A DNA stretch of 64,000 nt, from the NCBI GenBank assembly GCA_963765495.1, contig CAVXWP010000002.1, forward strand, positions 64,001 to 128,000. The letters run 5' to 3'. The first letter of the stretch is position 1. Each line of letters opens with the position of its first letter. The stretch comes from Blastocatellia bacterium. Lineage in GTDB: Bacteria > Acidobacteriota > Blastocatellia > UBA7656. Below the pieces are notes generated by a model that made no database searches, was not told where the DNA came from, and saw only the letters and a list, made by a program, of their open reading frames with translations. Shown in pieces: positions 3,851 to 44,108 of this stretch. A program made the position numbers and the translations under genes.

Positions 3851-4138
3851 CTAGGGATGGTCTGGAGGTTTGAAACGGACAAGGGCTAATCCCTCAAAAT
3901 CCTCAATTACACGAGATGCAGATCCCAAAGAGCGTATCTCAAATCCTTGTTCATTCGCCGTGCCGTGGACTATAACCCCTGCGCCTCCACGTAACTTTTC
4001 GCAAACCATCTTCCACAGCATGTCTCTCACCATCGCCGAAACATTACCAACGAATACACCTGCTTGTAGCTCAAGCATCCACCTTGTGAGTTCTCCTCGA
4101 ACACTTGTAGGCACTCGCTCCAAAATAATAACAATCAC
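3851..4138 (-). CDS. cas2: Type I-E Cas2
   Basis: MIVIILERVPTSVRGELTRWMLELQAGVFVGNVSAMVRD and NEQGF motifs. Confidence 0.96.
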   Translation of the reverse strand: MIVIILERVPTSVRGELTRWMLELQAGVFVGNVSAMVRDMLWKMVCEKLRGGAGVIVHGTANEQGFEIRSLGSASRVIEDFEGLALVRFKPPDHP

Positions 4139-5088: not shown

Positions 5089-5091
5089 CCG

Positions 5092-6500: not shown

Positions 6501-6506
6501 GGCAAC

Positions 6507-7691: not shown

Positions 7692-7745
7692 TGCGATTTC
7701 TCCTTTTGTAAATGTGAAATTCATTGCCGAGTCGTAAGACTCATC

Positions 7746-8279
7746 TTAGTTGGCAGTCTCCGAACTCTTTCCCCAGTAGGCGCGCGCCCAGTCGCGTTGC
7801 ACACGGCGGTCTTCACTATGCCACCAGCGCAGATCTCGCAGCAGGCGAGCCCAATCAATCGGAATCTCTTTTGACTTGAGCAGGCTGACAGCGTGGCGCA
7901 GATGTTCAGGCAAATCTTCGCGGTGACAATTAAGCAAAGCTACAAAGCGTTTTTCGATGCTCTCGCTTTCCACCTCTCTATTTAGCCGGGCAAATGATGC
8001 GCCCATGTTTGTCGAGCGATTGGATTCTTCATCCAAATGCCAGTTAATCTGATGCAGCGCGAAGAGAGCGCTAACCATATAGTAAACGTCTTCATCCCAT
8101 AGCGAAGCTTTTCCTATGAAAGGCAGCACATAACGATGCGCCTCCGCCGATTCGCCCGGCGATTTGCCCAGACCGCGACGCAATGCCGCCAGTGCTGCGC
8201 GATTTTCATTCTTCACCAGCCCTTCCAAATAAGCGACAAAGGCTTCCTCCCGGCTTGAATGTTTTGTTTCGGTTTTCAT
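7746..8279 (-). CDS. cse2: Cas11 (Cse2/CasB)
   Basis: LAALRRGLG, RFVALL, IDWARLLRDL..W, WARAYW. Confidence 0.95.
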   Translation of the reverse strand: MKTETKHSSREEAFVAYLEGLVKNENRAALAALRRGLGKSPGESAEAHRYVLPFIGKASLWDEDVYYMVSALFALHQINWHLDEESNRSTNMGASFARLNREVESESIEKRFVALLNCHREDLPEHLRHAVSLLKSKEIPIDWARLLRDLRWWHSEDRRVQRDWARAYWGKSSETAN

Positions 8280-12722: not shown

Positions 12723-13721
12723 CTAAAGGTAATTCTTCTGCATCTCGGTAATTTCTTCCTGAATCTCTTGTCGCAATTCCTTTGGCGCTATTACCTGTGC
12801 ATGCGAGCCGTACTGCATCACAAAGCGTTTCACTCCATCCAAAGCTGTCACATGCATCTTTACCCTCAGACCGCCATCCGGCATCTCTTCGCGCTCCTCG
12901 GTAGGGTGGAATTTGCCCCGCTCGCGCATCCATCGCGCTTGATACTCATCAAATATAATCTCAACCTCGATAGGATTCTGGCCCCTTATCATCGCAAAAC
13001 CTGATTCCAGGTACTCCCGCAGATCAAATTCTTCCGGCCAGCCGAATCGCTCCTCCGTAACTTCTAACTCGCGTATGCGGCCTGCATGAAAGTCCCGTAT
13101 CCCACCGCGCAGATGATCAAACGCGATCAGATACCATTCGCCCAGGTAGTTCCTCAGGTGAAGTGGATCAACTTGCCGTCGCGTCATCTGCCCACGGTTG
13201 GCAGTATAGTATGTCATCTCTATGCGGAGGTGCTCTTTAGCCGCTCGGCCAAGCCTACGAAAAAGCTCAGGGTCTAGCTCGCTTGTGGCTTGTGCTTCAA
13301 AGGAATATGCCTCAGCCAGTGATCCCAGATCGACAGATACAAGATCAGTCATTGCGCCTATAACCTTGCTGAACGCTGTCTCAACCTGATGAACTATGGC
13401 TGTGCCCCTATACTGTTGAACAAGCCGCTCGGCCAATAAGATTGCTACAAGATCGCCCTCAGAGAGTTCGATTGCCGGGAGGGCGTATGTCGGCTCGGTG
13501 TAATACCAGCCACGGTGCTCATACGAATATGCCAATGGCAACCGAAGTCGATCACGCATAAAGTCTACTGTGCGTTGCGCGGTCTTCGTACTAACTTCGA
13601 AATGATTGGCTATAGTGCGCGCGGTTGGATACCGGCCTAAACGAATTTCCTGATCTATCCAGAAAACACGTTCTAAGTGTCGTAAGTTCTCGCGGCTTTT
13701 CTGACTCGAATTCTGCTTCAT
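12723..13721 (-). CDS. wHTH-WYL-WCX transcriptional regulator heading the cas operon
   Basis: HTH FEVSTKTAQRTVDFMR; RRQVDPLHL...EWYLIAFDHLRGGIRDFHAGRI; YGSHAQVIAPKELR. Confidence 0.92.
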   Translation of the reverse strand: MKQNSSQKSRENLRHLERVFWIDQEIRLGRYPTARTIANHFEVSTKTAQRTVDFMRDRLRLPLAYSYEHRGWYYTEPTYALPAIELSEGDLVAILLAERLVQQYRGTAIVHQVETAFSKVIGAMTDLVSVDLGSLAEAYSFEAQATSELDPELFRRLGRAAKEHLRIEMTYYTANRGQMTRRQVDPLHLRNYLGEWYLIAFDHLRGGIRDFHAGRIRELEVTEERFGWPEEFDLREYLESGFAMIRGQNPIEVEIIFDEYQARWMRERGKFHPTEEREEMPDGGLRVKMHVTALDGVKRFVMQYGSHAQVIAPKELRQEIQEEITEMQKNYL

Positions 13722-14254
13722 GATCAAGCCATATTCAAACATGTGATGTAGGACATCTAGTGTCCTATCAAAAATTTCTCTACTCACTAGATGAAGTATG
13801 TGAGGGGATCATCGTTATTCAGTTTAAGATTCTCAGTTGCCTTGAACCCTCAAAAGGCTAGTGCAACCCGAGTAATCATCTTCCTAATAAACCAACATGA
13901 TGATCATATGCTGGATATATGTAAGTAATCATTGCAACTTTGATGGTTAGCCGATTGATTTCTTCTGCTTAAAAATTGGGTGCCGCAGTATCTCTATTAT
14001 TTAGTTATATTTTGGATAACGCAAAGCTTCTGATTCTTAGGATTCCTCGCGATTATATGCTAATAATTTTACAAGCCACCGATGAACACACATACCCGCC
14101 GACCCGGCTGAATACTCATCGGTGGCTTCGGCTCCCCTTTCTCGAAGCCGCTTGTGTTTTCAAATCTCTTCTTCGAGATCCGTACTGGCAACCAGACGGA
14201 TGTGTTTCACCTGGGGACCGCTGGGCCTATCCCCTCCTCTACAACCCTGGCTAA

Positions 14255-14571: not shown

Positions 14572-14757
14572 ATGAAGAAACGAACAAGCAGCAAAACGAA
14601 GGACAACCAGATGCAGCTTCGCCTCCCGCCTGAGATCAAGAAGTGGATCGGGCCGTGGGCAAAGCGGCATGGGTTCAAGTCTAGCCAGCGAGCAATCGTT
14701 GACATCCTGCGCGACCGAAAGCGCGAGGATGAGATAGCCACGGTCACAAGCAAGTAA
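14572..14757 (+). CDS. Ribbon-helix-helix (Arc-like) protein
   Basis: QMQLRLPPEIKKWIGPWAKRHGFKSSQRAIVDIL. Confidence 0.72.
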   Translation: MKKRTSSKTKDNQMQLRLPPEIKKWIGPWAKRHGFKSSQRAIVDILRDRKREDEIATVTSK

Positions 14758-15620: not shown

Positions 15621-16604
15621 ATGAGCAATCTTGTTCAAGGTCTTGTCTATGATCGTGCTCCTTACTCAGATGACCGTTTCAATATCCTGCTCGCCCTGGC
15701 TGATTGGGCCAATGATGACGGACGCAGTTGCTACCCCAGTTTGATAAAGCTTGCAAGAAAAGCAAGAGTCAGCTACCGCAATACCATCTACTCAATTCAA
15801 AAGCTCGAAAACGAACGCATCAACGGCGAGCCTATGTTGAACGTCACTCGTCACAAAAAGAAAGGTCTCGCAAACGAGTACTTCATCAACGTTCCTCTAC
15901 TTGAAAGCCTCCCCTACTATTGGCCGGAGAGTCTACAAAACAGAGTGCAACCATTGCACCCAAGCGTTCTGAAAAAGGCTGTGGAAAAAACTCGGCTCAA
16001 GGGTGCAACCAGTGGAAAAAATAGGGTGCAATCTAGGGTGCAACCCAAGGGTGCAATGGTTGCACCCCATCCATCATGTCATGCATCCATCATGAATCAA
16101 CCACCATTAGATGCAACCGTCAATCATGACGGAGGAGAGACTGTGGAAAACTTTCAGGAGAATCTTTTCCCTGATCTCTCGCCTGCCGAGTTGGTCGAAT
16201 TTGCGGGCGCGCCATCTCTTCCTATCGGGGGGCGATATGTCCGAGACGAAACAGACCCGGGCGGATGGAGTCAGGTCGAGGTGATGGAAGCATACAAAGA
16301 CATGGTGCCGCACGCCCTGAGCAACGATGATAGAAAAGAACTCCAGAAGATCCGAGACTTTCCTTTCTCCACACAACTAACCATCTACGTAATGCACAAG
16401 ACCAAAGCGAAAGCCGGCAGCCCGCCCGGCTCAATGAAGTACTTCCGTATTGCGCTCGAAAGGCTCTGGATAGATTGCTCCATAGCCATTGCAAAGGTGA
16501 GAGACGAAACCTATTCAATGACACGCGAGCAAGCCTTTTGGAAACTGAACGATGCTGTTTTGAAAGAAATTGCGCTGTGGGAATGTAGGCTTGGAAGAAG
16601 CTGA
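15621..16604 (+). CDS. Phage replication initiator (N-terminal wHTH, HTH_36-like)
   Basis: LLALADWANDDGRSCYPSLIKLARKARVSYRNTIYSIQKLE; contains iterons. Confidence 0.85.
   Translation: MSNLVQGLVYDRAPYSDDRFNILLALADWANDDGRSCYPSLIKLARKARVSYRNTIYSIQKLENERINGEPMLNVTRHKKKGLANEYFINVPLLESLPYYWPESLQNRVQPLHPSVLKKAVEKTRLKGATSGKNRVQSRVQPKGAMVAPHPSCHASIMNQPPLDATVNHDGGETVENFQENLFPDLSPAELVEFAGAPSLPIGGRYVRDETDPGGWSQVEVMEAYKDMVPHALSNDDRKELQKIRDFPFSTQLTIYVMHKTKAKAGSPPGSMKYFRIALERLWIDCSIAIAKVRDETYSMTREQAFWKLNDAVLKEIALWECRLGRS
15942..16068. repeat. Iterons, probable replication origin within the initiator gene
   Basis: AGGGTGCAA at 16000, 16023, 16035, 16048; variant AGAGTGCAA at 15942; inverted TTGCACCC at 15954 and 16060. 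Confidence 0.8.
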
Positions 16605-17043: not shown

Positions 17044-17689
17044 GTTAGACCCTACGCCAAGCCATCCAGACCTCTTTGCATTAGTAATAGCCTTTCTATT
17101 CTAAATACAGTCTTACAGGGGATCTGAAATGTTTTGTGAGATTAGGACATATAGAGGTGTGCAGAAATCTCACAACCAACTTGGAGGAAAACCTATGAGA
17201 AAATCGCTGCTTGTCATTGCTGTATGCTGTTTTGTTGCGCTTCTAACTGGCACACAAAGCTTAGGAACTCACACGCATGCTGACTCTCTTCAGATTTCTT
17301 CAACATCTGAGAATTACTCCTATGGGGTAATTCTTGTGTGACTTATGAAACAGAAAGTGGCACAAGATGTACCGGCTCCAACAGCCTCTGGCTTAAGAAC
17401 TTTTACAATGGTTGTGGTAGCCGTGTGGAGGTAATTATAATGGAGAAGCTGAATTCAACCTCTCCTTGGACAAAGAAGACTTCTTTTTACCTGAGTTCTG
17501 GTGAAACGTATAGAATAGGAGATTGGTGGTGTGACGCTCCCTATTCATACCGAGTAGATGTCGAATAAGAAGGGAGAGAAGCGCAAGGCAGGCGGGGTCT
17601 AACAACCAGTTGAAGCGGAGCGCGCGAAGGACACTTCTCGTGGCTTCAGGCAGTGCCGCTCGCGCGCCCGCCGAACTGGACCGATGGCA
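17044..17689 (+). mobile_element. Orphan integron-type gene cassette
   Basis: Starts with core GTTAGAC (17044) and ends in an attC-like fold starting with the exact complement GTCTAAC (17597); arms CAGTTGAAGCGGAGCGCGCGA and TCGCGCGCCCGCCGAACTG. Confidence 0.7.
17195..17568 (+). pseudogene. Secreted Cys-containing protein, frameshifted at G4 run 17324-17327
   Basis: Signal peptide MRKSLLVIAVCCFVALL; one extra G joins the two ORFs as YGGNSCVTYETESGTRC. Confidence 0.65.
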
Positions 17690-17931
17690 GGAAGTTGCTC
17701 ATCTTCCCGGATGGAATTACAGTCAGGCGACATCTCGCATTCGAGAGCGGTTACACAAATCATCATGCGACTTGTCAGGGATGGCAGAGAATCTTGAGAG
17801 AAAGAAAATCGGCCTGTCGTTAATTAACCTACCCTCCTTTTGTAATGTTTCTCCTTGATCCCTCATTTATGGTTGTAGTATATCCTGTGCCAACTCACAG
17901 GTATTGAGTTTCCAATGGAAGGACAACCAAC

Positions 17932-18918
17932 ATGAAAAAGCTCCTCTTTTCCACTATTCTAATCCTCACAATCACTATTCAGGGCCTCTCATTCGGCGCT
18001 CAAGGTCACAAGGCGGTCGGTATGATCGCCCAGGCGAGGTTGAACCTACAGGCCGCCGCCGCTGTCACACGCCTGCTTGGAAATGGTGTCACTTTAGCTG
18101 ATGTAGCGACCTAGCCGGATGATGTGAAGCAAGCTAAGAGACGGAGAGGCCCTCTCAGGAATGATCCTGAGGCGAGAGCCTTCAACACAGCATTTCCTGA
18201 TAATGGAAGCTGGCACTTCGTCAATATGGCGCTTGGAACAAACTCTTACGCGGTCAATGGACCATTCAGCACGCAACATGACATCGTTCATATGATCAAC
18301 ACATGCATCCGTATACTTGAAACGCCTGGAAACCAAAGGACGCCGTTCACAAAGCTCCAGGCGCTCCGATGGCTGGTGCATTTGACTGGTGACATTCATC
18401 AACCTTTGCATGTCTCTGCCGGATACTATGAGTTTGACGATCAAGACGATGCCCTATTGATCGTAGACCCTGCGAGGGCTCTCGAACTTCCCCAGGATAG
18501 AGGCGGCAACTTGCTATTTTTTGGGACGGGCAGTAGCGATGAATTGCACGCTGTCTGGGACAACTTGCTTGTGCGAAGGATCGCCAATACACCTAACTTC
18601 AATCAACTCGCGGATTTCATCCTCTCAAGACTTAACGATCTTACCTGGATGAATCAGCGCAGATCTATGTTGAGTACTCCCGGTGAATTTCATTCGTGGG
18701 CATCCCGATGGGCCACTGACTCTCTTTTTCAGGCTCGGCAAGCCTATCAGGGAATCAGAATCGGAAAGACGACCTTCGATTCAGATGGAGACATTGTCTC
18801 GATTCAAATTGTTTTCCCTGATCATTACCTTGATAGACATGTGGAGCGCGAGACTTTACAGGTGGCAAAAGCTGGGTTCCGCCTTGCGGAATTACTCAAC
18901 AGGATAAACTGGAGATAG
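17932..18918 (+). pseudogene. Secreted S1/P1 nuclease with in-frame TAG at 18112
   Basis: Signal peptide, FGAQGH, DVAT*PDDVK where W is expected, WHFVN, LVHLTGDIHQPLH, DRGGN, LHAVWD, KAGFRLAELLN. Confidence 0.9.
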
Positions 18919-23284: not shown

Positions 23285-23497
23285 GGGATAAAATACTTCC
23301 GACCATGCCCCACCATTTTTTAGAAAAGGAAGTAATCAGAAAGTGGTCAACCTCTTCCAGATCATCGAAAAGGTAATCACTCCTGATTTTATTCCGCGCA
23401 AGCTACTACTTGCCCTGATCCTTCGTAAGATTCATATCTCTATTGACGTCCTGATGCGGCTGTAGTATATGCTTTGCCCGTTTGTAGGAGAACAACC

Positions 23498-25183
23498 ATG
23501 ACATCCCCGGATACTCTCAAACCACCACAAGAGTCTACCTTCAAATGTGACTGTGAAGATTGGATGCGTTCTGCCTGTGAGGGTGAGCCTTTCTACAAAG
23601 AGCATGAAGGCAAGCAGTACTGTGTGCTTCACTCTCCAGAAAAAGAAAAGAGTGAGGCTTTCAATGAAGCCCTAAACAGAAAGCTTGAGAATAAAGACTT
23701 TGATTTTCGCGGTGTATGGTTCCCCGATGATGTGGACTTTAATGGATTTGAATTCAGCGCGTCGGCGGACTTCTTCTCTGCTAGATTCAGCGAGAAGGCC
23801 GACTTCCAATCTGCAAAATTTAGCGCGTGGGCGGATTTCCGAGCTGCAAAATTCAGCGAGAAGGCGGACTTCCGAGCTGCAAAATTCAGCGAGAAGGCCG
23901 ACTTCCAATCTACCACATTCAGCGCGTCGGCGAACTTCTTCTCTGCCAGATTCAGCGAGAAGGCCGACTTCCAATCTGCAAAATTTAGCGCGTGGGCGGA
24001 CTTCCGATCTGCCACATTCAGCAAGAAGGCCGACTTCTTCTCTGCCAGATTCAGCGAGAAGGCCGACTTCCAATCTGCAAAATTCAACGAGAAGGCCGAC
24101 TTCCGAGCTGTCACATTCAGCGCGTCGGCGGACTTCCGGTCTGCCACATTCAGCGGGAAAGCGATCTTTTACTCTGCCACATTCAGCGCGTCGGCATACT
24201 TCTCCTTAGCCACACTCAGTGGGGAGGTGGATTTCTACTCTGCCAAATTCAGCACGTCGGCGTACTTCTCTGTTGCAACATTCAGCGGGAAAGCGAATTT
24301 TCACTCTGCCAGATTCAGCGAGAAGGCCGACTTCCAATCTGCAAAATTCAGCGAGAAGGCCGACTTCTCCTTTGCCACATTCAGTGGGGAAACATCCTTC
24401 GCCTCTGCCGCATTTAGCGGGGATGCGTCCTTCTCCGAGGCTACGTTCAAAGATCAGGTCAGGTTTGTCGGGAATGACGGGAATCGGATTTTTAGTGAAG
24501 AGTCTACAGTTGATTTTCAAGTTAAACTCATTGAAAAGCCTGACCGAGTTTCTTTTCATACAGTGACTCTTTGCCCAACCTGGCTCATCAATGTAATAGA
24601 TGCGCCTAAGTTCGAGCTTACGAACGTGAAATGGGTTGAGGGTGTCACCAAACAAGAAATCAAAACGTTGAAATCCAGAAATGTTGAATCACCCCATCAA
24701 CTCCTTTCTATTGCTTATCGCAATCTTGCAGTCAACACCGAAGAGAATCACCACTATGATAGGGCATCAAGGTTTCGTTATAAGGCGATGGATGTGCTCA
24801 GATGTGAAAATTGTAGGGGCTTCGCTTTCTGGTCGTTGGGTTGGTGGTACTGGGTTTCAAGCGGTTACGGCGAAAAGATCATTAGAGCCTTTTTTTGGTT
24901 CTTAGTAATATGGTTGCTATTTGCCTGGCTCTACACAAAAGTAGATTTTGCTCACCCGAATCCACAGGCTTCAACTGCGAATCAGGCAGCAGCCGCAGAT
25001 GTAGGCGAACCACTCAAGTTACCACGCGCCCTCACTTACAGTTTTGCAGTGATGAGCTTACAGAAACCGGAGCCACGCCCGGCAACAAATACGACTCACG
25101 CTCTGGTAACACTAGAAACAGTTCTAGGCCCCTTGCAAGCTGCGTTGCTTGCCCTCGCTGTTCGTAGAAAGTTTATGCGATGA
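23498..25183 (+). CDS. Pentapeptide-type repeat protein with C-terminal TM region
   Basis: About 20 tandem 11-aa ADFxxAxFSxK units (33-bp DNA repeats); YCVLH N-terminus; WVSSGYGE and TM helices; own TTGACG-17-TATATG promoter. Confidence 0.88.
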   Translation: MTSPDTLKPPQESTFKCDCEDWMRSACEGEPFYKEHEGKQYCVLHSPEKEKSEAFNEALNRKLENKDFDFRGVWFPDDVDFNGFEFSASADFFSARFSEKADFQSAKFSAWADFRAAKFSEKADFRAAKFSEKADFQSTTFSASANFFSARFSEKADFQSAKFSAWADFRSATFSKKADFFSARFSEKADFQSAKFNEKADFRAVTFSASADFRSATFSGKAIFYSATFSASAYFSLATLSGEVDFYSAKFSTSAYFSVATFSGKANFHSARFSEKADFQSAKFSEKADFSFATFSGETSFASAAFSGDASFSEATFKDQVRFVGNDGNRIFSEESTVDFQVKLIEKPDRVSFHTVTLCPTWLINVIDAPKFELTNVKWVEGVTKQEIKTLKSRNVESPHQLLSIAYRNLAVNTEENHHYDRASRFRYKAMDVLRCENCRGFAFWSLGWWYWVSSGYGEKIIRAFFWFLVIWLLFAWLYTKVDFAHPNPQASTANQAAAADVGEPLKLPRALTYSFAVMSLQKPEPRPATNTTHALVTLETVLGPLQAALLALAVRRKFMR

Positions 25184-31449: not shown

Positions 31450-32778
31450 TTAAAAGCATGAGGGGAGCTTCACCGCGAAGCTATCAGATCGAAAAGGAAA
31501 CTTCTTATGCACAACATAGCCCAGAGCGGCCCCAGGATGCGTCAACGGCCCCTTGTAGCTGTCTTTCAGCAACACATCCCAGGTACATTTCTCCAGATCA
31601 CCTCTGAGCAGCTTGCAGGATTTATCCACGAATAGATGACGCTCTCCCAGACTGTTGAAGATGCGCCCGTTGACGGCATTGATACGATCTTTGATGGGTG
31701 GATTTTTGGCCGGTCCACCAAGCTTGAACCCGGCCTCTTTCAAAATCTTATGATCGCTCGTTCCCGTAGTGTGTCTCTGCGCCCCGGCAGCATCGGGGAT
31801 CAGCACCACGCCCCCGACCCCATACCGGCGCTCAATCTCTTTCACCAGTTGCGGAGTATCGCCGCCTCTGATGTAAATCTCATCTATGACGTAAACATCC
31901 AGCCCCCGCACCTCGCAAGCATAGGCATGCATCCCCGGATCAACATTGAAATCAATCCCCACAAGCAATACTTCATCTGTCAACGAATACTCGCCCATAT
32001 TCTCCACCCTTGAGAAATTCGGATAGCAGTTTCCCGAGTAGATATTCAGCACCTTGCCCTCAATCTGCTGCTGTGCCATCTCCGGAGACATAACGCTCAT
32101 CACGTCTTCGACATAATCAGCAGGCAGATGATAATTCTCGCGGCTGTCGGCGGTCACAACTCGAACCTTTGGATCTTCCTCAATCTCACCAAACCAGTTC
32201 AGACCATCGGGCGAGCTGGTCAGCCAGCCCTCCAATCTGTCTACCCTGCCATCACGGTGACGCTCCCGGATAGTCCTGTATGCGGCCTGTTCCATATCCT
32301 TTGCCTCATCCAGCCAGAACCAACCGCATTTGAATCCGTCCCAGGTCTTATAGCCCTTGTTCTCAGCAGCGCGGCAAAGCACCTCCACCCTCTCCCACAG
32401 ATAGAGCACCTTCTTTTTGGCCGCAGCCTCCGGAGTCTTAGGATGAATCGCCACGCCATACGACTTTGCGACCTCATACAGACCCGTCAGTGTGGATTGC
32501 CAAAGCTGAGTGTATGTGTTAGCTCCGATGAAGCCCCTCACCTCTGGATTGCGCGCGGCCTTCTCAATAGCGTAATGAGCGCCGATCCACGACTTGCCCG
32601 ATCCGATCCCGCCGCGATAGCCCACATACTTGGCCTCTTCCTGATCGAAGTAGCCTACAAACTGAACCTGCCCGGGGATGGATTGCTTGCCTGGAGGAAA
32701 CAGCCTCGCGCGGATCTCCCCGCCGGTTGGAATGATAATCAACCGCTTGCCTGCTCGTCTTGTCCAGCCTAAAGCCAT
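31450..32778 (-). CDS. terL: Terminase large subunit
   Basis: GGIGSGKS Walker A, WLDEA Walker B, TSSP motif C, GIDFNV nuclease, DAAG, NPPIKDRINAVN. Confidence 0.93.
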   Translation of the reverse strand: MALGWTRRAGKRLIIIPTGGEIRARLFPPGKQSIPGQVQFVGYFDQEEAKYVGYRGGIGSGKSWIGAHYAIEKAARNPEVRGFIGANTYTQLWQSTLTGLYEVAKSYGVAIHPKTPEAAAKKKVLYLWERVEVLCRAAENKGYKTWDGFKCGWFWLDEAKDMEQAAYRTIRERHRDGRVDRLEGWLTSSPDGLNWFGEIEEDPKVRVVTADSRENYHLPADYVEDVMSVMSPEMAQQQIEGKVLNIYSGNCYPNFSRVENMGEYSLTDEVLLVGIDFNVDPGMHAYACEVRGLDVYVIDEIYIRGGDTPQLVKEIERRYGVGGVVLIPDAAGAQRHTTGTSDHKILKEAGFKLGGPAKNPPIKDRINAVNGRIFNSLGERHLFVDKSCKLLRGDLEKCTWDVLLKDSYKGPLTHPGAALGYVVHKKFPFRSDSFAVKLPSCF

Positions 32779-35271: not shown

Positions 35272-35526
35272 GTGAACCGCAAGCAACTTGAGCGTGTAGT
35301 CCTCACCGACGCTCTCAGCTACATCAAAGAGCAGACCGGCTACGATTTTGAGCGACGGACATTCTTACACTGGATCGAGCAGGGATTCGTGAAGCTCAAC
35401 GGCAACGAGTTCAATCTGATCGCTGATAAGATCGGAGAGCGGTACTACATCAACCGTGCAAACCTCGACAACTTGATTGTTTTCCTCAACTGGTCCAAAG
35501 AGCAGTACAACACTAACGAGGGGTAA
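35272..35526 (+). CDS. MerR/excisionase-like DNA-binding protein
   Basis: LTDALSYIKEQTG...RRTFLHWIEQG...KIGERYYINRANLD. Confidence 0.65.
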   Translation: MNRKQLERVVLTDALSYIKEQTGYDFERRTFLHWIEQGFVKLNGNEFNLIADKIGERYYINRANLDNLIVFLNWSKEQYNTNEG

Positions 35527-35571
35527 TCAATCGGTGCGCTACGCGGATATTTAATCCGGCAAGACTCACAC

Positions 35572-35860
35572 TGATGGAGCGGGCCTGCGGCCCGTCCATC
35601 ACTTTCTAATCTCAGGTGTGACAGATGAAAGGACGCGCGGCAAACAACGCCGCGCGATTGGCCTGCGGCAGCAACGAGGCGATGCAAAAAACGCATCGCG
35701 ATAATGGGCTGTGCGGCAACGCGGTCGGCCCATTATCCGCTCAGGCAAAGGCGGCACATAGCCGCCTCTGGCGGCTACGGTGGCGCTTCGCGCTGCACCG
35801 CCCTTCGGGTTATGCCGCCTTGCCTTCGCAGGTTTGGCCTCCATCGCGTTGCTGCACGCC
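35572..35860. other. Highly structured non-coding element (multi-branched ssDNA or RNA fold)
   Basis: At least seven nested or adjacent stems with TTCG loops; no credible ORF. Confidence 0.7.
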
Positions 35861-35996
35861 CCATGCCACAAATCCCCGCCATCAAATCAATTTATTGACC
35901 TGCTTAAATTGATAAGAATTATTCGTTTCCGTTTTGATACCATTATGATACAATAGTGACATCAAGTAACACTCAGTTACAGAAAGGACAACCAAC

Positions 35997-36452
35997 ATGA
36001 AAACCACCACCCAAAGCGACCGCATTGACCGCGCGCTTGAGATAATCAAGGGCGGTCACGTTCTTAAGGTTCAGTATCACGAGCGAGACGCAAACTGGTT
36101 TGTGGCCTCGCAATCAAAACAAGATTTCAACTACAAAGTGGAAAGCGATTCCTGCACCTGCCCGGATGCATCCAGCACAGGGCGACCGGCGCGCATTTGC
36201 AAGCATATGTGGGCCGGTCCCGGCGCTCCGGCAGCTTTGCTCATCTCCAAAATTCGAGCGTGCACCGGCTTTCTGCAATTGCGCGAGATTGCCGAAATGT
36301 ATGCGCCCGCCCTGGCCGATGTGCCTGCTCTGTTCATCCGTGTAGCCCGATCAGAATACAAACTGGCTTGCCGCCGCATTTGCACCCGAATCACTTTTGA
36401 CACCGCACCCGAGCCGGCCTCTCAACAAAGCGAAAGGGGGCTGGCAGCATGA
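35997..36452 (+). CDS. SWIM zinc-finger protein
   Basis: VASQS..YKV..SCTCPDA...ICKHMW; strong RBS. Confidence 0.8.
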   Translation: MKTTTQSDRIDRALEIIKGGHVLKVQYHERDANWFVASQSKQDFNYKVESDSCTCPDASSTGRPARICKHMWAGPGAPAALLISKIRACTGFLQLREIAEMYAPALADVPALFIRVARSEYKLACRRICTRITFDTAPEPASQQSERGLAA

Positions 36453-36739
36453 ACGGCATTGTTTATCTTCTCCACTTCACCAGTCCCTACAAACACGCCC
36501 GGCATTATGTCGGGTTTACAACCGATCTGGCTGCGCGTCTCGCTGATCACTTCAATGGTCGCGGCGCTCGACTTCTTGAAGTTATCGTTGCCGCCGGGAT
36601 CGGCGCGCAGTTGGCCCGCACCTGGGCAGGCAATCGCAAACTCGAAAGGCAGATCAAAAACAGGAAAGCAACGCCTCGCCTGTGCCCCATTTGCAATCCA
36701 CAAACGGCGCTCAACAATGTGGCGCACTTAAACCACTGA
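36449..36739 (+). CDS. GIY-YIG nuclease
   Basis: VYLLHF..YKHARHYVGFTTDLAARLADH..GRGARL...LERQIK...LCPIC. Confidence 0.85.
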   Translation: MNGIVYLLHFTSPYKHARHYVGFTTDLAARLADHFNGRGARLLEVIVAAGIGAQLARTWAGNRKLERQIKNRKATPRLCPICNPQTALNNVAHLNH

Positions 36740-36784
36740 TAAAACCGGGGCCGGGCAGACCGGCCCCAGAAAGGACAACCACAG

Positions 36785-37564
36785 ATGCAGGAAACCACCA
36801 CAGATAACCTCAGATGGACGGAGCTGCTAAGTCAGGCGGTTTCACAGCCCGGCTTGCTTCTCAAGGCATATGGCTACTTCCACAACTACAGCTTAGGCAA
36901 TCAGGTAATGGCTTTGATGCAATGCGCGCTCAGACAGATCGAACCCGGCCCGATCAACACATACCCCGGCTGGCTTTCACTCGGCCGACAGGTCCGCAAA
37001 GGTGAACGCGCCCTTGTGCTTTGTATGCCGCTCGCCGCTAAACGCACAAACGACCAGGGCGAGAAAGAGGAATTCATCAAGGCTTTCGCATACAAGCCCC
37101 GATGGTTTGTTATCTCTCAGACCGATGGCGCAGCCTATCAGATGCCGCCGCTGCCCGAATGGGACAAGACGCGCGCCCTGGCCGCTCTCTCGATCACAGA
37201 GGAAGAGTTCACGCACACAGATGGCAATGTGCAAGGCTACGCCACAGCCCGACGGCGGGTTGCAATCTCACCGCTCGCGGCTTTGCCTCATAAGACTCTT
37301 TTTCACGAGTGCGGTCATCTCCTACTAGGCCACACGACAGAGGCAGACTTTAACGACGAGGCCACGCTCCCGAAATCACTGCGCGAAGCCGAAGCCGAAG
37401 CCGTCGCCCTGCTTTGTCTCGATGCGCTCGACCTCGAAGGGGCCGACTTTTGCAGGGGCTACATACAGAACTGGCTCGCAGGTGAACCGATACCCGAACG
37501 CAGCGCACAGCGCATCTTTGCCGCAGCAGATCAGATCATCAAGGCCGGTCAGCTTCCGGCCTGA
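36785..37564 (+). CDS. ArdC-like ssDNA-binding antirestriction protein with zincin domain
   Basis: FHNYSLGN, TYPGWLSLGRQVRKGERA, QTDG, HECGH, EAEAEAVA, YIQNW, RIFAAADQI. Confidence 0.88.
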   Translation: MQETTTDNLRWTELLSQAVSQPGLLLKAYGYFHNYSLGNQVMALMQCALRQIEPGPINTYPGWLSLGRQVRKGERALVLCMPLAAKRTNDQGEKEEFIKAFAYKPRWFVISQTDGAAYQMPPLPEWDKTRALAALSITEEEFTHTDGNVQGYATARRRVAISPLAALPHKTLFHECGHLLLGHTTEADFNDEATLPKSLREAEAEAVALLCLDALDLEGADFCRGYIQNWLAGEPIPERSAQRIFAAADQIIKAGQLPA

Positions 37565-37636
37565 GGGTGGTCCCGATTCGTTGCCAACAATCAACCAGGG
37601 CCGGGGCGCGGTCCCGGCCCAGAAAGGGTAATTGCG

Positions 37637-37903
37637 ATGAGAATGACAACGAGCCAGGGAAGGCAAATCTTCCTTGAGCGATTGAGCCGAGCCGATCTCG
37701 AAGGCTGGATTGAGCGCAACAGCCGGCTCGCGCTTTCAAACTGTCGCGCAGGTCGCGCGACCGAAGCAAACATTTACACGCAGGCAGCAGTGGCCGGCGC
37801 GCGCGAGCTCCTGGCCCGCGATCCGCGCGCTGTCGAGACCCGCGCCCCGCTAGTGAAGCCTCAACTCCCAACAAGCGGCCGTCACGAAGACATCGAGATA
37901 TGA
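37637..37903 (+). CDS. Hypothetical protein
   Basis: Preceded by hairpin and AGAAAGG module. Confidence 0.55.
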   Translation: MRMTTSQGRQIFLERLSRADLEGWIERNSRLALSNCRAGRATEANIYTQAAVAGARELLARDPRAVETRAPLVKPQLPTSGRHEDIEI

Positions 37904-38273
37904 AGCGCATCAAGCGAATAATTCACGAATTGAAACATTGGGGGCCGGGCGCGGGTTGGGTGATGCTCACTCGCGTCTGGCTTCCCAACAAGATCGCACA
38001 GATCAGATGGGCACGCGCCCAGAGGAGGCTAGATGCAAAGAGAGCCAACAGAGAAAGAGAAAAGAGAGAGGATGATTGACCTGGCTATTTCCAGTCTGAT
38101 CACCGCAGCCGAGGCTGTCGTCGAAGATGCCGCGAATAACGGTCAGCCATCTTTGGCCTCGCTTCTCTACCTCAGCCACAAGGTAGTAACCGCGCGAATC
38201 ATTCTGGGATCTCCAATTCCTACAACCGCTATCACCTGGCATTTTCCAGGTGGCAGCAAACGGAGGATGAACA

Positions 38274-38636
38274 ATGCGAAATTATCCTGATGAAATCCAC
38301 GCCAAACGACTTGAGCTTATAGACCTCAACGAGCAGATCAGAGACTTGCGCGAAGATCAGAAGAAGATCGAGACACAGGAAACCATCGAGGTTCTCTATG
38401 CAAAAGGTGACAACGAGAAGCCGAGATACACCAACGACACACAGCGCGGCCTCGCCCTCGATCAGGCATTAGAGGCAAACGGCTCATATCAAGTTCAAAA
38501 AATCGACCTGCAAAACCTCGAAAGGAAGCGAGAAGAATTGAATGCCGAAATCGAACGACTGCGGGATCTGTTCAAGGTCGAGAAGATGGAGAAATGGGAA
38601 GTGATCAGCAAGAGGATGGCTAATGCATCGCTCTGA
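38274..38636 (+). CDS. Coiled-coil hypothetical phage protein
   Basis: GGAGG RBS; KPRYTNDTQR motif. Confidence 0.7.
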   Translation: MRNYPDEIHAKRLELIDLNEQIRDLREDQKKIETQETIEVLYAKGDNEKPRYTNDTQRGLALDQALEANGSYQVQKIDLQNLERKREELNAEIERLRDLFKVEKMEKWEVISKRMANASL

Positions 38637-38713
38637 AGAACCCGGCCCCTGGGGTAGCCGGGCGGGCCGGATTACCGATTCGACCCGGCAGCAAAATACG
38701 CCTGGCAGATCAT

Positions 38714-38784
38714 AAAGTCAAGGCCCGACTCGCAACCACCACGAAGCGAGCCGGGCCAGAACAACCAACTTTTCAGTCTTGTAT
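38714..38784 (-). ncRNA. Candidate antisense small RNA (~70 nt)
   Basis: Minus-strand TTGACT(38819-38814)-17-TATCTT(38796-38791); 12-bp GC hairpin 38722-38757 that pairs fully only on the minus strand (G:U), followed by a U-rich tail. Confidence 0.55.
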
Positions 38785-38830
38785 GGAGCAAAGATAACAG
38801 CCCCTCGGGGAGCAGTCAATAGGAGGTTAA

Positions 38831-39196
38831 ATGAAAGTTCTTGCTGTAATGGTTGACGACAAAATTGCGAGAGTCGAAGACGCGACCGGAAAGGTTTTTG
38901 ATCTGGTCACAACTCGACTCACTCAAAAGGGCCTGCTTGAAGAGGCAGCGTTAGAGTTGAAAAAACAGGGATGCGAAGCGGAGCTAAAGGAGTTTGATAT
39001 CAAAGCTCCATACGGTTACTCCAAGGTGCTCAATCGGGCAGAAGGCGCTTCTTTGATCGGCGACGGGCCAAATCCACTTTGCCTTTGTGAAAACGGAATT
39101 TCCCCAATGTTCTGCCAGTTTGGTCATCTTACCGAGTGCCACTATCCAATGAATTGCCGAGAGGCCGAGTGTTCACATCTTTCAAGGTATGAATAA
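38831..39196 (+). CDS. Hypothetical protein with Cys/His-rich C-terminus
   Basis: AGGAGG RBS; CLC...FCQFGHLTECHYPMNCREAECSH. Confidence 0.7.
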   Translation: MKVLAVMVDDKIARVEDATGKVFDLVTTRLTQKGLLEEAALELKKQGCEAELKEFDIKAPYGYSKVLNRAEGASLIGDGPNPLCLCENGISPMFCQFGHLTECHYPMNCREAECSHLSRYE

Positions 39197-39206
39197 GAGG
39201 TGATAT

Positions 39207-39542
39207 ATGATCGCTAATAATGTGAAAACCGATGTGACCTTGATTTCGACATGTCCATATTGCGAGCAGGAAATAGAAACGATTTCCGCTCAGGTGGCGA
39301 ACTTCATACAGAAATACGGTTGTGATGATTGCCGCCTGGGTTCATTTGAAATCAAGTCGGAGTTCCTGACGAGAATTGATCTTCAAAGAGTCCTGAAAAT
39401 CACAAAGCGCCAGGTATATGATCTGGTCCAACGCCGCGCGATCCCCTTCAGAAGAGTAGGGCGTCTGCTCCGATTCTCTCGCAAGGAGATAGACAAATGG
39501 ACGAAGGGTGATTCCGATTCGGAGCGGGCAGCAAATAATTGA
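39207..39542 (+). CDS. xis: Excisionase (HTH_17) with N-terminal CxxC-CxxC
   Basis: FLTRIDLQRVLKITKRQVYDLVQRRAIPFRRVGRLLRFSRKEIDKW. Confidence 0.82.
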   Translation: MIANNVKTDVTLISTCPYCEQEIETISAQVANFIQKYGCDDCRLGSFEIKSEFLTRIDLQRVLKITKRQVYDLVQRRAIPFRRVGRLLRFSRKEIDKWTKGDSDSERAANN

Positions 39543-39788: not shown

Positions 39789-40010
39789 AGGGGAGGGTAA
39801 TGTCCTTCTCAAGTATATGAATGTAATAAAATACTATTCGGCAATTGTCTTCGATTCTAATCTTTTTTGCTAAGCATTATGACTCATCTGCTTAGTAGTA
39901 TAACATCTTACCTAAACCGGGGCACAAACCTGCATTTCGTATTCTGCCTATTGCTGCTTAAGTCCTACAGTAAGTGGATGACAACAGCAATGGATGAAAA
40001 GGGTCTAAAT

Positions 40011-40162
40011 TTAATTGAGACGTGGTCATAAATTAAAACCTTTACATCTAGCAGTTAGAGGGTCTGACAAGACCGGCCGCAAGCTGTGCTAAATTATGTT
40101 ACATCTGTAAATGTTGCATCTGGGCCTTAACTGTTTCTGAATTATGACCACGCCTCAATTAA
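40011..40162. repeat. 21-bp inverted repeats flanking ~110 bp
   Basis: TTAATTGAGACGTGGTCATAA versus TTATGACCACGCCTCAATTAA (20/21). Confidence 0.8.
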
Positions 40163-40247
40163 TTCCTGTTTTGCCTGGATCACTCATTTTTCTCCTTAAT
40201 CGTTCGATTTCTTCCCATTCGGGGGGTGCTTTGGAAGTGACTTGAAA

Positions 40248-40883
40248 CTACTTAACCTGCTCATATGTTCCCTCCATGAAAAACTTGTTCTGATCTAATG
40301 CGCTTTTGGTAGTGTAAAAGTCCACAGTCACAGAATCCTCATTAAATACCATCTTGATATAGCGACATCTGTCACCATCAAAGTTTGGAGCAGACAACAG
40401 ACGAATGATGGTTCCGTCCTCATCCTCCGAAATAGTTTCGTATGCAGAACTTTGCCCGCTTCGCCAAGTGATCTTTTTTGAATTTCGATTTTCATACATC
40501 GTCATCCTCCCAAAACTCATATTAGAAGTACTGACCGGCTCCCACCGCGTAACTGAATCCTGAAAGATAGCGCAAAGGTGTGAATAACCAGTCCCGTTAA
40601 ACTGATTTATCGCCGCCTCACCTTCCTCGCGGCTCGCCATCACAACAAAACCGAAACCTCTCGACCTTCCGGTTTCCTTATCCTCACCGACTTCCGCACT
40701 CTCGACAGGGCCAGACTGTGAAAAAAGTTCACGCAACTCTTCGCTGCTAGTTTGAAAACTTAGATTGCCCACATATACCTTCATCTGCTCGGCTATCGGG
40801 TTTTGAGCTTCGGCAAAATTCGATAGACAAGCAATTGCAGTGATGACAAATACAGTTGACCATATTCTTTTGAACATAATCAT
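40248..40883 (-). CDS. Signal peptide, RRM domain and unknown C-terminal domain
   Basis: MFKRIWSTVFVITAIACLSNFAEAQ then KVYVGNLSF (RNP2) and RGFGFV (RNP1). Confidence 0.8.
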   Translation of the reverse strand: MIMFKRIWSTVFVITAIACLSNFAEAQNPIAEQMKVYVGNLSFQTSSEELRELFSQSGPVESAEVGEDKETGRSRGFGFVVMASREEGEAAINQFNGTGYSHLCAIFQDSVTRWEPVSTSNMSFGRMTMYENRNSKKITWRSGQSSAYETISEDEDGTIIRLLSAPNFDGDRCRYIKMVFNEDSVTVDFYTTKSALDQNKFFMEGTYEQVK

Positions 40884-40896
40884 AATTTCTCCTCGA

Positions 40897-41661
40897 CTAT
40901 TTTTTGTAATTCTCCGACACAAACTGATTAAAGAATTTATTCAGGTTTTCCGGTTCCAAGAGCGCAAAACCGTCGGCATTGGAATTCTTAGACCTGACTG
41001 CATTCTCTTTCTGCTGCTCATACGCCTCAGCTTCGTCTATGTAAGCGGTCATGAATTTTTTTCCGAGCGCGGTTGCCGTAAATTTATCGTGTTCTGCTTT
41101 GTCTTCCGGTGTGAAGTCCAAAGTGCCGCCATTTCCGGTGATGAGTTCTGCCATCTTTGAAATCCTGACGTATTTTAGAACCTGCTGACCGGCGGTTCCC
41201 TGAAAAAAGGTGATCAGGCTGTTTAGTTCTTTGACCGTAAATTTCGCGGTATAACTTTTCTGCAAGCCTTCTTTGATCCATTGCTCGGTCGGAAAGTTCT
41301 TTCTGATTGTATCGTCAATGATCTTGTCAATGCTTTTGCTCAACCGGTCATAATTGGCTTTGACAAACGATTTTTGACCGGGCGTTAATTTGTTATTGAC
41401 CTTCAGCGCCTCATCAAAAACTTCTATTCTGACTTTTCTCACTCTTTCTTCCTCATCTTTGACGTCTTTGGTTCCCGGCAGCGAAGCAATTTGCTCTTCA
41501 ATGCCGACGTAGGGATGCATCGAAAAAGTTAAATCGATCAGGTTTTTTACCGACGCGCCTTTTGCTGGTGCGCCTTTCGGTGTTTGAGCTTCGGCAAAAG
41601 GCGCGTCGCCCGCGACCAGCACGATAAGCGAGATGATTACGATAAGCCCTATTTTCTTCAT
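40897..41661 (-). CDS. Secreted DUF2059-like protein
   Basis: Signal peptide; YTAKFTVKELNSLITFFQGTAGQQ and KFTATALGKKF. Confidence 0.75.
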   Translation of the reverse strand: MKKIGLIVIISLIVLVAGDAPFAEAQTPKGAPAKGASVKNLIDLTFSMHPYVGIEEQIASLPGTKDVKDEEERVRKVRIEVFDEALKVNNKLTPGQKSFVKANYDRLSKSIDKIIDDTIRKNFPTEQWIKEGLQKSYTAKFTVKELNSLITFFQGTAGQQVLKYVRISKMAELITGNGGTLDFTPEDKAEHDKFTATALGKKFMTAYIDEAEAYEQQKENAVRSKNSNADGFALLEPENLNKFFNQFVSENYKK

Positions 41662-41965
41662 GGTTTCTTTGTCTCCCTTTTCCTGAGGGGGTTGCTCCAA
41701 ATCTGCTTGATTGATGGCCCGATCCGCCAAGGCTTGTTTGTTGCAGTCCGTATCTAACTCTATGAAAGCAACGTCCAGTAGTTGATGAGTTTCAAGGCTG
41801 CCTCAACTCCTGTCGAGTGCTCTCAGTAGATAAGGGGGAATTGGTGGGCGAAAGTGTTCACGCCACGAGAAAACTCAGGGGAAAATCGTTCTGGCTTAGC
41901 CTGCCCGGATGTGCCCCCGGATCGGACCTGTCCCGCGGCAAGCGTTAGGCTCTCCTCATCATCGC

Positions 41966-42190
41966 TCAAGCCACCAGTGAGTGTTTCTGCCTGTAGCCGA
42001 TCAGGCTCTGATACCCAAGTGCCTGATGCGGCCTTGCCTCGTTATACCACCTGATCCACTCGCGCACCTTCTCGCTGGCTGCTGCGAAACTCTCGAAGTT
42101 ATGCTGCCACACGCATTCTTCCTTCAAGCGCGGAAGAATCGCTCGATCAAGCCATTCTGCTCCGGTGAGTAGGGCGTGATGTACTCCTTC
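41966..42190 (-). pseudogene. IS3-family transposase C-terminal fragment
   Basis: EYITPYSPEQNGLIERFFR and LKEECVWQHNF...WYNEARPHQALGY, with a frameshift. Confidence 0.8.
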
Positions 42191-42845
42191 TCATTTTTCA
42201 TAGCCTACCTCCTGAGAAAGCATTCTCTGATATGTCTTATTAGTGGTCTACTTCTTAAGGAGAGCACGATACTTTCTTACTAAGCAAAATAACTATGCCG
42301 CCGAGTAGCAGAATGCGAAACAGGTGAATTTCCTAGTGTTTGTGTCCCAATCTCAGACCCTTTTCTGCCTCTTATGCTTAGTTCGGCAAATCCTCACCCG
42401 AAAAACTGTTCTGTCCAACTGCATCTCTACACAAGATTGGGAATCGCCAAACAGAAGAGATGCTTGAATGGAACAAGAAAAACGTGATATAAGAGGCTCA
42501 ACCCGACCCCAGGCGGGTTTATCTCATCTCGGAGATAACCCGATGCCTAAAATTCCACGCTCTGGCTTTCTGCCTTTCCTGAAAGATGACCTGGCGAATG
42601 GCTACGTCAAGGTAATGGCTCCAAAGATCGGCCAGGTTTACGCAAAGTTGCAAACTATCTCCGGGTCGAGGCGAGTAGAACTACTCGGTTGGGGCTTACA
42701 ACCTTCGGCTGCCTACCAATTGGAGTGCTACTCGAATGAAGATCAGCAGAAACTATTGAATACTCTTTCTTGAGTCGTATCCGAGTGGCAGTTAAAATGA
42801 CCACGCCCAAGCTGTGGCTGCGGCTCGGGAAAGGAACAGCCAACT

Positions 42846-44006
42846 ATGTCAGTGTACAAACGTACCTGGAAACAGAAAGACGGAAGCACCGCTTTTTGTT
42901 GGTACTTCCACAGAACCATTGATGGTGTGCGCTATCGTGATCGAATCCCAACGGCGCGCACCAAGCGCGAGGCTGATGAAGCAGAGCGCAAAATTCTAGC
43001 TCAAATACACGAAGGGACTTACGGCAAGCCCAAAGGCAACACAACGCTTAGGGAGTTTGTCGAAGGAACCTTTATCCCATGGTCAAAAGAAAACAAGAAG
43101 TCCTGGCGTTCGGACCTCTCGCGTCTCAAGCCGATCCTCGCCTACTTCGGCAAGAAGCGATTGAGGGAGATTTGCGAAAACCCGTTCCTAGTTGAAACCT
43201 TCAAGTCAAAGCGCCTCAAGGCACCGGTTGTTTACAAGACGAAGAATGGTCAGGGAAAACAAAAAAACAGATCGAAAGCGGCCGTCAATCGCGAACTCCA
43301 GTTGCTCTCTCGAATCTTCACCCTGGCGATGAGTAGAAAGGAAGTCTCTACAAATCCTGTTAGCCAGGTTGAGTTATTCAAAGGAGAGAAAAGAAGAAAG
43401 CGAAGGCTTGGACCGGATGAACGGTTGAGGCTATTCGAAGCAATCCCCGGCAAGCTTTCTCAGGCCAGGCGGTCGCATCTTATACCCATTGTGCTGCTTG
43501 CTCTCAACTGCGGACTTCGGCGCACCGAGCTACTTTCTCTGAAAACCGAAGACATAGATTTTGAGCAGAACATTATCAACGTCAGAGACACCAAGAACGG
43601 AGAGGATCGAGAGGTAGAGATGAACGCCACGGCAAAGGGAGTTTGTCTCGACCTCGTAGCGCAGGCGCGCGCCAAAGGGTGGATATACATCTTCACGAAC
43701 CCGAAGACAGGAATTCGATACAAAGACATCAAGAAGGGATTCGGCAATGCGCTTCGAGATGCAGGTATCGAGGATTTCCGCTTTCACGATCTGCGCCATA
43801 CATTTGCATCAACAGCAGGCGACGATCCAAGGGTGCCGATCACGGCCCTTGCCGAGACTCTGGGGCACAAAGATTGGCGCACAACGATGCAGTACACCCA
43901 CGCAAGTAAGAGCGGAAAACTGAGGGTTGTTGAAGCCCAGGAAAGGACCGAAGATGAGAGAGCAGGTCACAAAATGGTCACAAAGAACGAAAGGCAGGCT
44001 GTATAG
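42846..44006 (+). CDS. int: Tyrosine integrase of the 42.6-kb element
   Basis: CGLRRTEL, TKNG, FRFHDLRHTFAS, LGHKDWRTTMQYTH; abuts tRNA 3' end. Confidence 0.96.
   Translation: MSVYKRTWKQKDGSTAFCWYFHRTIDGVRYRDRIPTARTKREADEAERKILAQIHEGTYGKPKGNTTLREFVEGTFIPWSKENKKSWRSDLSRLKPILAYFGKKRLREICENPFLVETFKSKRLKAPVVYKTKNGQGKQKNRSKAAVNRELQLLSRIFTLAMSRKEVSTNPVSQVELFKGEKRRKRRLGPDERLRLFEAIPGKLSQARRSHLIPIVLLALNCGLRRTELLSLKTEDIDFEQNIINVRDTKNGEDREVEMNATAKGVCLDLVAQARAKGWIYIFTNPKTGIRYKDIKKGFGNALRDAGIEDFRFHDLRHTFASTAGDDPRVPITALAETLGHKDWRTTMQYTHASKSGKLRVVEAQERTEDERAGHKMVTKNERQAV

Positions 44007-44031: not shown

Positions 44032-44108
<77 letters not shown>

Follow-up and report, generated by a model that had tools for sequence, protein, structure and literature searches.

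In the early operon of a prophage-like island in an acidobacterial genome, the minus strand of a spacer carries a putative gene for a small trans-acting anti-Shine-Dalgarno (SD) RNA of the element, which would repress the integrase (int) and entry genes. We give this reading, drawn from sequence comparison, a probability of about 0.6. Its core, namely a minus-strand sRNA whose GU-rich tract pairs with start regions of the element including that of int, had been put forward in a preliminary description of the same DNA and gave the best fit to the comparative data. It is supported by a promoter, a tail, a hairpin and a U-rich end that recur in four lineages and in one orientation only, and by a seed that changes together with the start regions of int, of a SWIM-like gene and of an ArdC-like gene.

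The stretch of DNA that was analysed, hereafter the window, covers 64,000 nt (C2:64001-128000) of a 7.3-Mb genome assembled in 17 contigs. Pfam scans of the window delineated a prophage-like island that extends from about 14 kb to a tRNA-Met gene (44032-44108, minus strand), its integration site, and is closed by a tyrosine integrase gene (42846-44006, plus strand). The island encodes a LexA-like repressor, PolB, an S1/P1 nuclease and a pentapeptide-repeat protein, and its structural genes, among them that of the terminase large subunit (31450-32778), lie on the minus strand. The early operon (35272-39542, plus strand) comprises a SWIM-like gene, a GIY-YIG gene, an ArdC/IrrE-like gene and small ORFs, followed by the genes of 38274-39542. 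The first of these encodes a 120-aa protein (38274-38636, plus strand), is convergent with the candidate sRNA and served as the marker of the module in all lineages. The candidate sRNA locus lies within the 194-nt spacer separating it from a 121-aa Cys-rich ORF (38831-39196, plus strand), itself followed by an HTH_17 gene of the excisionase type (39207-39542, plus strand), both downstream of the locus. Elsewhere in the window, the Pfam scan detected another integrase gene at 141-1388, and a CRISPR array (approximately 1680-3800; 35 repeats, one every 61 nt or so) adjoins a type I-E cas operon (4141-12700), with a WYL-domain regulator (12723-13787) beside them; the long ORFs at 2037-3873 are artefacts of the array. 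The HTH_36 gene (15621-16604) contains four copies of AGGGTGCAA within 57 nt (16000-16056). Two stretches, 39875-40818 and 41583-42293, parted by a 764-bp insert, are 99% identical to a single stretch of contig C16 (243596-245233); since the gene of an RRM-domain protein (40248-40922) lies within this C16-like DNA, it is a recent copy of host DNA and not core element content.

The preliminary description had pointed to a minus-strand promoter, TTGACT-17-TATCTT, and a consensus scan located it at 38819..38791. The -35 box TTGACT (38814-38819) abuts the SD of the next plus-strand gene and is separated by 17 nt from an extended -10 element, TGT-TATCTT (38791-38799), in which TG precedes the -10 box. 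From this spacing, transcription is predicted to start at 38784, the A of a CA and the seventh base after the -10 box. The 5' tail (38758-38784, minus strand) is unpaired in the centroid fold. It contains the 14-nt seed core AAGUUGGUUGUUCU (38758-38771), which is indeed, as had been noted, a GU-rich tract directly 5' of the hairpin on this strand. The terminator-like hairpin (38722-38757, minus strand) is GC-rich and has 12 bp; its loop (38734-38745) contains GUGGUGGUU, the complement of a motif, AACCACCAC, found just past three target start codons. A U-rich 3' tail, UUGACUUUAU (38712-38721, minus strand), follows, with U at 6 of the next 10 bases compared with 0 of 10 in the other orientation. 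The claim that the hairpin pairs fully on the minus strand only was borne out as well, all 12 pairs being formed, with position 7 a G.U on the minus strand and an A.C on the plus strand. We also considered the minus strand as a peptide gene and rejected it, as an indel shifts the frame and the reading frame is not kept; this lack of conservation indicates that the candidate RNA is non-coding.

A second copy of the block is found in the same genome at C9:191186-191268, with 93% identity over 84 nt. Its carrier (L001, C9:176900-193120) is a 16-kb mosaic relative of the island, located at a tRNA-Arg(CCG) gene and without structural genes, that shares with it the pentapeptide gene, a 290-aa gene, the C-terminus of the ArdC-like protein, small ORFs, the 120-aa gene, the RNA module and the integrase; this may be a defective element, or one resembling a satellite. 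The window and the second copy are approximately 92% identical throughout, and identical runs reach 63 nt in coding sequence. We therefore dismissed a higher conservation of the block relative to its flanks: hairpin and seed share a 50-nt identity, to be compared with the 63-nt identical coding run, and such an identity between two copies is not special because the coding flanks are equally alike. Just past the block the two copies cease to be homologous and have different genes downstream. A further GC-rich hairpin-forming stretch of the window (CCCGGCCCC...GCCGGGCGGGCCGG, 38640-38690), between the stop codon of the 120-aa gene and the RNA module, is missing in the second copy.

A six-frame protein search revealed homologues of the 120-aa protein in 14 of the 401 genomes of the class. 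The same spacer build was present behind the homologue in four lineages, represented by the window with its second copy and by the genomes G051, G002 and G027, all belonging to the host's own acidobacterial family. The 120-aa proteins of these genomes are 48, 28 and 33% identical to that of the window, respectively, identities across the lineages being 28-50%, and the flanks of the module cannot be aligned between lineages. A word-indexed protein search gave a single relative, P0001, at 88-91%. Close DNA relatives were found in none of the 52 other genomes of the family, and the exact 24-nt pattern had no match in viral or metagenome contigs. A degenerate seed-hairpin pattern searched in public collections returned the G002 and G051 contigs again, together with three chance hits devoid of hairpin. 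A covariance model, R1, built from four copies retrieved its own training copies and nothing further in 53 family and 58 order genomes; the G027 copy, which scored only 9.5 bits with R1, was assigned by synteny and inspection. The module was absent from one IMG/VR relative of the 120-aa protein, and reads of three soil DNA runs gave only the window and second-copy contigs, with no new variant. A search of sequencing runs brought up no RNA run containing the locus. The genome itself contains seven further paralogues of the 120-aa gene, with 33-37% identity (C16:3271, C2:56317, C6:9153, C14:113360, C12:207358, C9:650217 and C15:184668). Those on C16, C14 and C12 and the one at C2:56317 have a different conserved spacer made of two hairpins, then AGAAAGGCA and ATG; a T-rich run antisense to the first of these hairpins makes an analogous antisense RNA conceivable.

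All five copies show promoter-like and terminator-like features at corresponding positions and with a bias to one strand. The five promoters read TTGACT-17-TATCTT, TTGCCA-18-TATCGT, TTGACT-18-TAATCT, TTGACT-17-TACCCT and TTGTTT-18-TACACT. TTGACT occupies the same position in G051 and G002, while the TTGCCA of the second copy arises from non-homologous sequence; the spacers between the boxes cannot be aligned. TAnnnT is present in 5/5 copies, with TG one base upstream in four of them, and in all five the -10 box is followed by six bases and then CA. The 5' tail measures 20 to 27 nt, and UUGGUU is invariant in its alignment. The -10 boxes are weak (3-4 matches out of 6), so that only two of the five copies passed the promoter rule of the tool, and the promoter match on its own carries little weight since there were 3 promoter-like sites per 1.5 kb for 1.2 expected. 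The promoters of host tRNA genes provide a usable consensus for this group of bacteria: 35% of the 49 genes score at least 10/12 on TTGACA-17/18-TATAAT, compared with 0.4% of 3000 random 80-mers, and they are very regular (TTGACA-18-TAnnAT), 7 of the 49 scoring 11/12.

Strand bias was also apparent in the hairpins. In the four independent hairpins, the sense corresponding to the window minus strand was the more stable one, with -27.6 compared to -20.3 kcal/mol in the window and -24.4/-22.7, -35.2/-29.9 and -17.9/-16.1 kcal/mol (minus/plus sense) in the others, and each contains one G.U pair that is A.C on the opposite strand. Both sides were altered at 6 of the 12 stem pairs, yet 94.7% of 38 cells were paired; this level was reached by 3 of 500 shuffles, and slid registers gave at most 56%. 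Past the hairpin, U accounts for four to six of ten bases in the four counted copies and for none or one in the other sense; the tail of the G027 copy, which stands outside this count, is UUCACUUCUCA. The U-tails are interrupted (UUGACUUUAU, UUCGAGUUUU and GCACGUUUUU). The hairpin was rejected as a plus-strand terminator, no U-tract being present in that sense. Other families have a T-run after the homologous hairpin on the plus strand, which makes the inverted polarity in the four lineages stand out. In two further GC-rich hairpins of the operon (36747-36767 and 37598-37620), a terminal CCGGCCC is directly succeeded by AGAAAGG, which serves the next gene as SD; the hairpin at 37598-37620 has its G.U on the plus strand and thus fits the mRNA sense, unlike that of the candidate sRNA. 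We infer from the conserved elements of the minus strand that it is transcribed.

The seed of the candidate RNA has counterparts elsewhere in the island. Four plus-strand copies of ACAACCAAC had been reported in the window, and we retrieved them at 17172, 17923, 35988 and 38761, where 0.25 would be expected; none of 100 shuffles reached four copies, and the entire 7.3-Mb genome holds only 19 on both strands. As a control for the look-elsewhere effect, we collected every 9-mer that occurs four times or more on one strand of the window; these numbered 302, mostly CRISPR repeats and internal repeats of the pentapeptide gene, and among them ACAACCAAC was the most enriched dispersed 9-mer. The overlapping AGGACAACC and GGACAACCA also recur, at 14600, 17920, 35985 and 36772. 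Together, these recurrences point to a longer motif common to the start regions, AAAGGACAACCAAC-ATG. As for AACCACCAC, it occurs at 23520, 36002, 36793 and 38734, the last copy being the hairpin loop of the candidate sRNA. In three genes that also bear the AAAGGACAACCAAC motif it lies 5-25 nt past the start codon, and it is found likewise after the SWIM-like start of G051. In the spacer, AACCACCAC and the first motif stand in inverted order, which speaks against their having arisen by simple duplication in the same sense.

The six sites listed in the preliminary description were all confirmed at start regions, and their pairing with the candidate RNA was estimated from cofolds. Of its "about six" targets, int, the SWIM-like gene, the ArdC-like gene and the S1/P1 nuclease N-terminal ORF held, whereas two, the site at 17172 and the pentapeptide gene, turned out to be weak. 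The best predicted target is the SD-to-start region of int (GGAACAGCCAACUAUG, 42833-42850, plus strand), with a net gain of -17.0 kcal/mol. It is followed by the SWIM-like start (AGGACAACCAAC-AUG, 35985-36010, plus strand; -14.7 kcal/mol), in which AACCACCAC occupies 36002-36010, and by the ArdC-like start (AGGACAACCAC, 36772-36801, plus strand; -12.5 kcal/mol), with AACCACCAC at 36793-36801. At the start of the S1/P1 N-terminal ORF (site 17920-17934, ORF from 17932, plus strand), 20 nt are identical to the SWIM-like site and the net gain is -12.2 kcal/mol. The S1/P1 gene itself (17932-18918) is split by an in-frame TAG at 18099-18101, its 55-aa N-terminal ORF corresponding to profile positions 1-31 and the ORF starting at 18124 to positions 55-256; it is either a pseudogene or a case of read-through. 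A target absent from the earlier list, with a net gain of -11.9 kcal/mol, is the start of a 48-aa ORF (14611-14757; AAGGACAACCAG-AUG at 14599-14613, plus strand). Gains were low for the start of the pentapeptide-repeat gene (AGAACAACC-AUG, 23489-23528, plus strand, with AACCACCAC at 23520; -6.4 kcal/mol), whose site is conserved in the second copy, and for ACAACCAACTT (17172-17182, plus strand; -7.4 kcal/mol), upstream of the SD of a 47-aa ORF (17198). By comparison, two neighbouring genes gave -4.6 and -2.1 kcal/mol. The full-length cofolds leave the terminator intact.

At the scale of the genome, the complementarity does not resemble that of a generic host spacer, the check that had been suggested: pairing of the 14-nt seed at -16 kcal/mol or better is found at just 23 of the 31,023 start-like sites of the host. 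When all 31,236 start-like sites of the genome are probed with the 22-nt tail, the top two ranks go to the int starts of its two elements; probing with no more than the 14-nt seed places int second and the SWIM-like gene seventh. Of 1000 permuted tails of matched composition, 0, 0, 1, 0 and 4 do as well as the cognate tail-int duplexes, whose energies range from -18.4 to -23.6 kcal/mol. Element starts below -13, -15 or -17 kcal/mol are not in excess, their number being matched by 44, 37 and 22 of 150 permuted tails, respectively. Since these target counts are no better than those of permuted tails, the case rests on specific conserved targets and not on broad enrichment. The site is kept across lineages in int (5/5 elements), in the SWIM-like gene (3/3) and in the ArdC-like gene (2/2): SWIM-like orthologues with a matching site are found in G051 and G027, and an ArdC-N-like gene with the site in G051, while the upstream flanks of the target genes are unrelated between lineages. 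The 12 cognate duplexes comprise 12-20 bp, span about -13 to -1/+5 and are imperfect. A conserved single-stranded seed that matches several start regions imperfectly is what characterizes trans-encoded sRNAs. Hfq is encoded in the genome (93.8 bits).

Covariation of seed and targets in related elements had been proposed as a further check, and the seed was found to vary together with the int, SWIM-like and ArdC-like starts. In the window, the spacer motif and the SWIM-like start contain ACAACC and int ACAGCC. The same ACAACC is present in the spacer motif and SWIM-like start of G051, with ACGACC at int. G002 has ACAAACC in the spacer motif and ACAGACC at int, and in G027 spacer motif, int and SWIM-like start all have ACAAACC. 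The one-base difference in seed length (ACAACC compared to ACAAACC) is thus repeated in the local targets, and an additional A specific to the window (GAACA) is common to the spacer motif and the int start. In the cross-matrix, the cognate int was the best partner in four of the five rows. When the two copies of the genome are compared, a 57-nt stretch around the int start differs only by the loss of 1 nt from the paired tract; their RNAs differ by a substitution and an indel adjoining the seed, and the advantage of cognate pairs amounts to 0.9-3.5 kcal/mol. With the second copy set aside, the 11 remaining cognate duplexes contain 15 wobbles, always with G in the mRNA and U in the sRNA and never reversed.

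Other explanations of the locus have to be weighed against these data. The minus-strand RNA might act only in cis, as an antisense to the operon spacer combined with promoter collision that limits the HTH_17 module, the distant matches being non-regulatory. The arrangement lends itself to such a role: the candidate RNA is fully complementary to any read-through transcript, read-through is itself likely as the plus sense of the hairpin has no U-tract, three lineages have the -35 box immediately against the SD of the following gene, and the HTH_17 gene follows directly in three of the five copies (the second copy, G002 and G027). We nevertheless consider a purely local action improbable, because it accounts neither for the invariance of the seed within the tail, nor for int and SWIM-like starts located kilobases away that vary in step with it, nor for the first two ranks of the int starts in the genome. 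It is also conceivable that there is no minus-strand RNA at all, and that the spacer holds a plus-strand stabilising or processing hairpin and a degenerate copy of a ribosome binding site (RBS) at a recombination joint between modules, with complementarity as a by-product. An RNA complementary to start regions necessarily makes the opposite strand look like a start, so that this same-sense reading mirrors that of an sRNA. The unit "GC hairpin + AGAA(AGG)" indeed occurs three times in the same sense in the operon (36768, 37621 and 38758) and is a real RBS twice, homology of the two genome copies ends after the block with different genes downstream, in G027 the spacer motif and the SWIM-like start region coincide over 17 nt, ATG included, and an ORF of 4-5 codons follows the motif in 4/5 copies. 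However, these short ORFs encode no conserved peptide (MEQR, MREG, MLNQV; G051 has none), four of the five spacer copies have lost the SD (AGA for GGA), the loop and tail motifs are in reverse order compared to start regions, and the conserved spacing of TTGACT, TAnnnT and CA has no plus-strand reading. As each of the four hairpins is weaker in the plus sense, where it contains an A.C mismatch and is followed by no U-tract, we attribute only a small probability to this explanation.

A third explanation would have AAAGGACAACCAAC and CCACCAC recognised by a sequence-specific protein that the element encodes, acting either as a translational repressor or as a regulator that binds DNA, with the spacer copy as one more site. 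A co-evolving protein would yield the same pattern as that observed, namely a motif whose position is fixed relative to the start codons of several genes and lineages and which changes in concert within an element, and the module contains several small conserved proteins of unassigned function. No candidate was identified among the proteins, though. The RRM-domain protein was rejected as a reader of the motif because its gene belongs to the 99% identical copy of host DNA and is missing in relatives. All deviations of the targets from the spacer motif are A to G changes, which an RNA duplex tolerates, and a protein site would leave the promoter, the strand bias of the hairpin and the U-tail unexplained; we thus regard it as very unlikely.

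Under the preferred reading, that of a trans-acting sRNA, a sigma-70-type promoter whose -35 box abuts the RBS of the next gene would drive minus-strand synthesis of a non-coding RNA, about 65-75 nt long, within the plus-strand early operon, and the GC-rich hairpin with its U-rich tail would terminate it. Its GU-rich single-stranded tail of 20-27 nt would pair with 12-20 nt of the int mRNA, from the SD to the start codon, and with the early mRNAs bearing AAAGGACAACCAAC (SWIM-like, ArdC-like and others). Pairing would block ribosome binding, so that int and early genes would be held down during residence of the element; on this basis we infer a role of the candidate RNA in lysogeny. The GUGGUGG of the loop may add a second contact with the CCACCAC present after some start codons, but the geometry makes simultaneous contact of seed and loop doubtful. 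Since the candidate RNA is fully complementary to transcripts that read through the spacer, strong early transcription might both hinder its promoter and soak it up, and this titration by the early operon would release int and the early genes. One could go further and combine a start-region code, in which one RNA reads the SD-spacer motif of the integrase, anti-restriction-like, SWIM-like and other entry genes, with the CCACCAC contact and a transcript acting as sponge and roadblock, to form an RNA-only bistable switch between residence and excision. The seeds are identical in the full element and its 16-kb relative, which in such a scheme could lead to cross-immunity or helper-satellite cross-talk of co-resident elements. 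We find this extension speculative and rather unlikely.

Comparison with known systems indicates that the candidate RNA would be a new sRNA family of a known kind and belongs to none of C4, CI and GcvB. At the Rfam 15 gathering score, only a tRNA was detected in the window with a set that included C4, GcvB, DicF and IsrK, and at E<=10 the region 38600-38900 gave chance-level matches to Tombus_3_III and sR2 (10-12 bits for cut-offs of 35-42). C4 of phages P1 and P7 pairs through two short contacts and is cut from a same-sense operon transcript ahead of its target. This antisense RNA is required for full repression of ant in P1, and its binding site lies in the c4-icd-ant operon (PMC8198154). 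As in the immI operon, the candidate would be a small phage RNA that pairs over short stretches at the start region of a phage mRNA and helps to maintain lysogeny; however, it lies opposite to the operon and is preceded there by a promoter-like site of its own, which is not the C4 arrangement, and its predicted targets are several genes located up to 24 kb away, including the integrase. The CI RNA of P4 pairs with seqA and seqC and causes premature termination (PMC4825925). It is likewise an immunity RNA encoded by the element and complementary to sites in the element's own transcripts, but its source is an untranslated same-sense transcript, from which it is processed, and what it affects is transcription termination instead of ribosome binding. 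GcvB has been described to pair immediately upstream of the yifK SD, in a context where ACA motifs enhance translation (PMC3879156). Both RNAs oppose a GU-rich single-stranded seed to C/A-rich sequence at or just upstream of the SD in many mRNAs, although GcvB is a core-genome regulator of amino-acid transport, whereas the candidate RNA resides on a mobile element and would target the element's own genes. In IS10, RNA-OUT is a small RNA that keeps transposase translation low by covering the RBS of the element's own recombinase mRNA and acts on other copies in the cell; it overlaps its target gene and is perfectly complementary to it. In contrast, the gene of the candidate RNA (38712-38784) is located 4 kb from the int start (42846) and overlaps the operon spacer only, and its pairing with int is imperfect (12-16 bp with G.U), as for trans-encoded and not cis-encoded sRNAs.

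Our literature search yielded no element-encoded trans-acting RNA that represses the element's own integrase together with early genes, and Table 1 of a 2022 review gives 4 annotated sRNA families for Acidobacteria compared to 345 for Proteobacteria (PMC9029176). If the proposal is true, it would provide a compact and testable RNA-based control of integration and excision in a soil phylum that is hard to culture, for which the natural seed-target variants already resemble compensatory mutants. It would also mean that phage "immunity RNAs" of the P1/P4 type have analogues far beyond enterobacteria.
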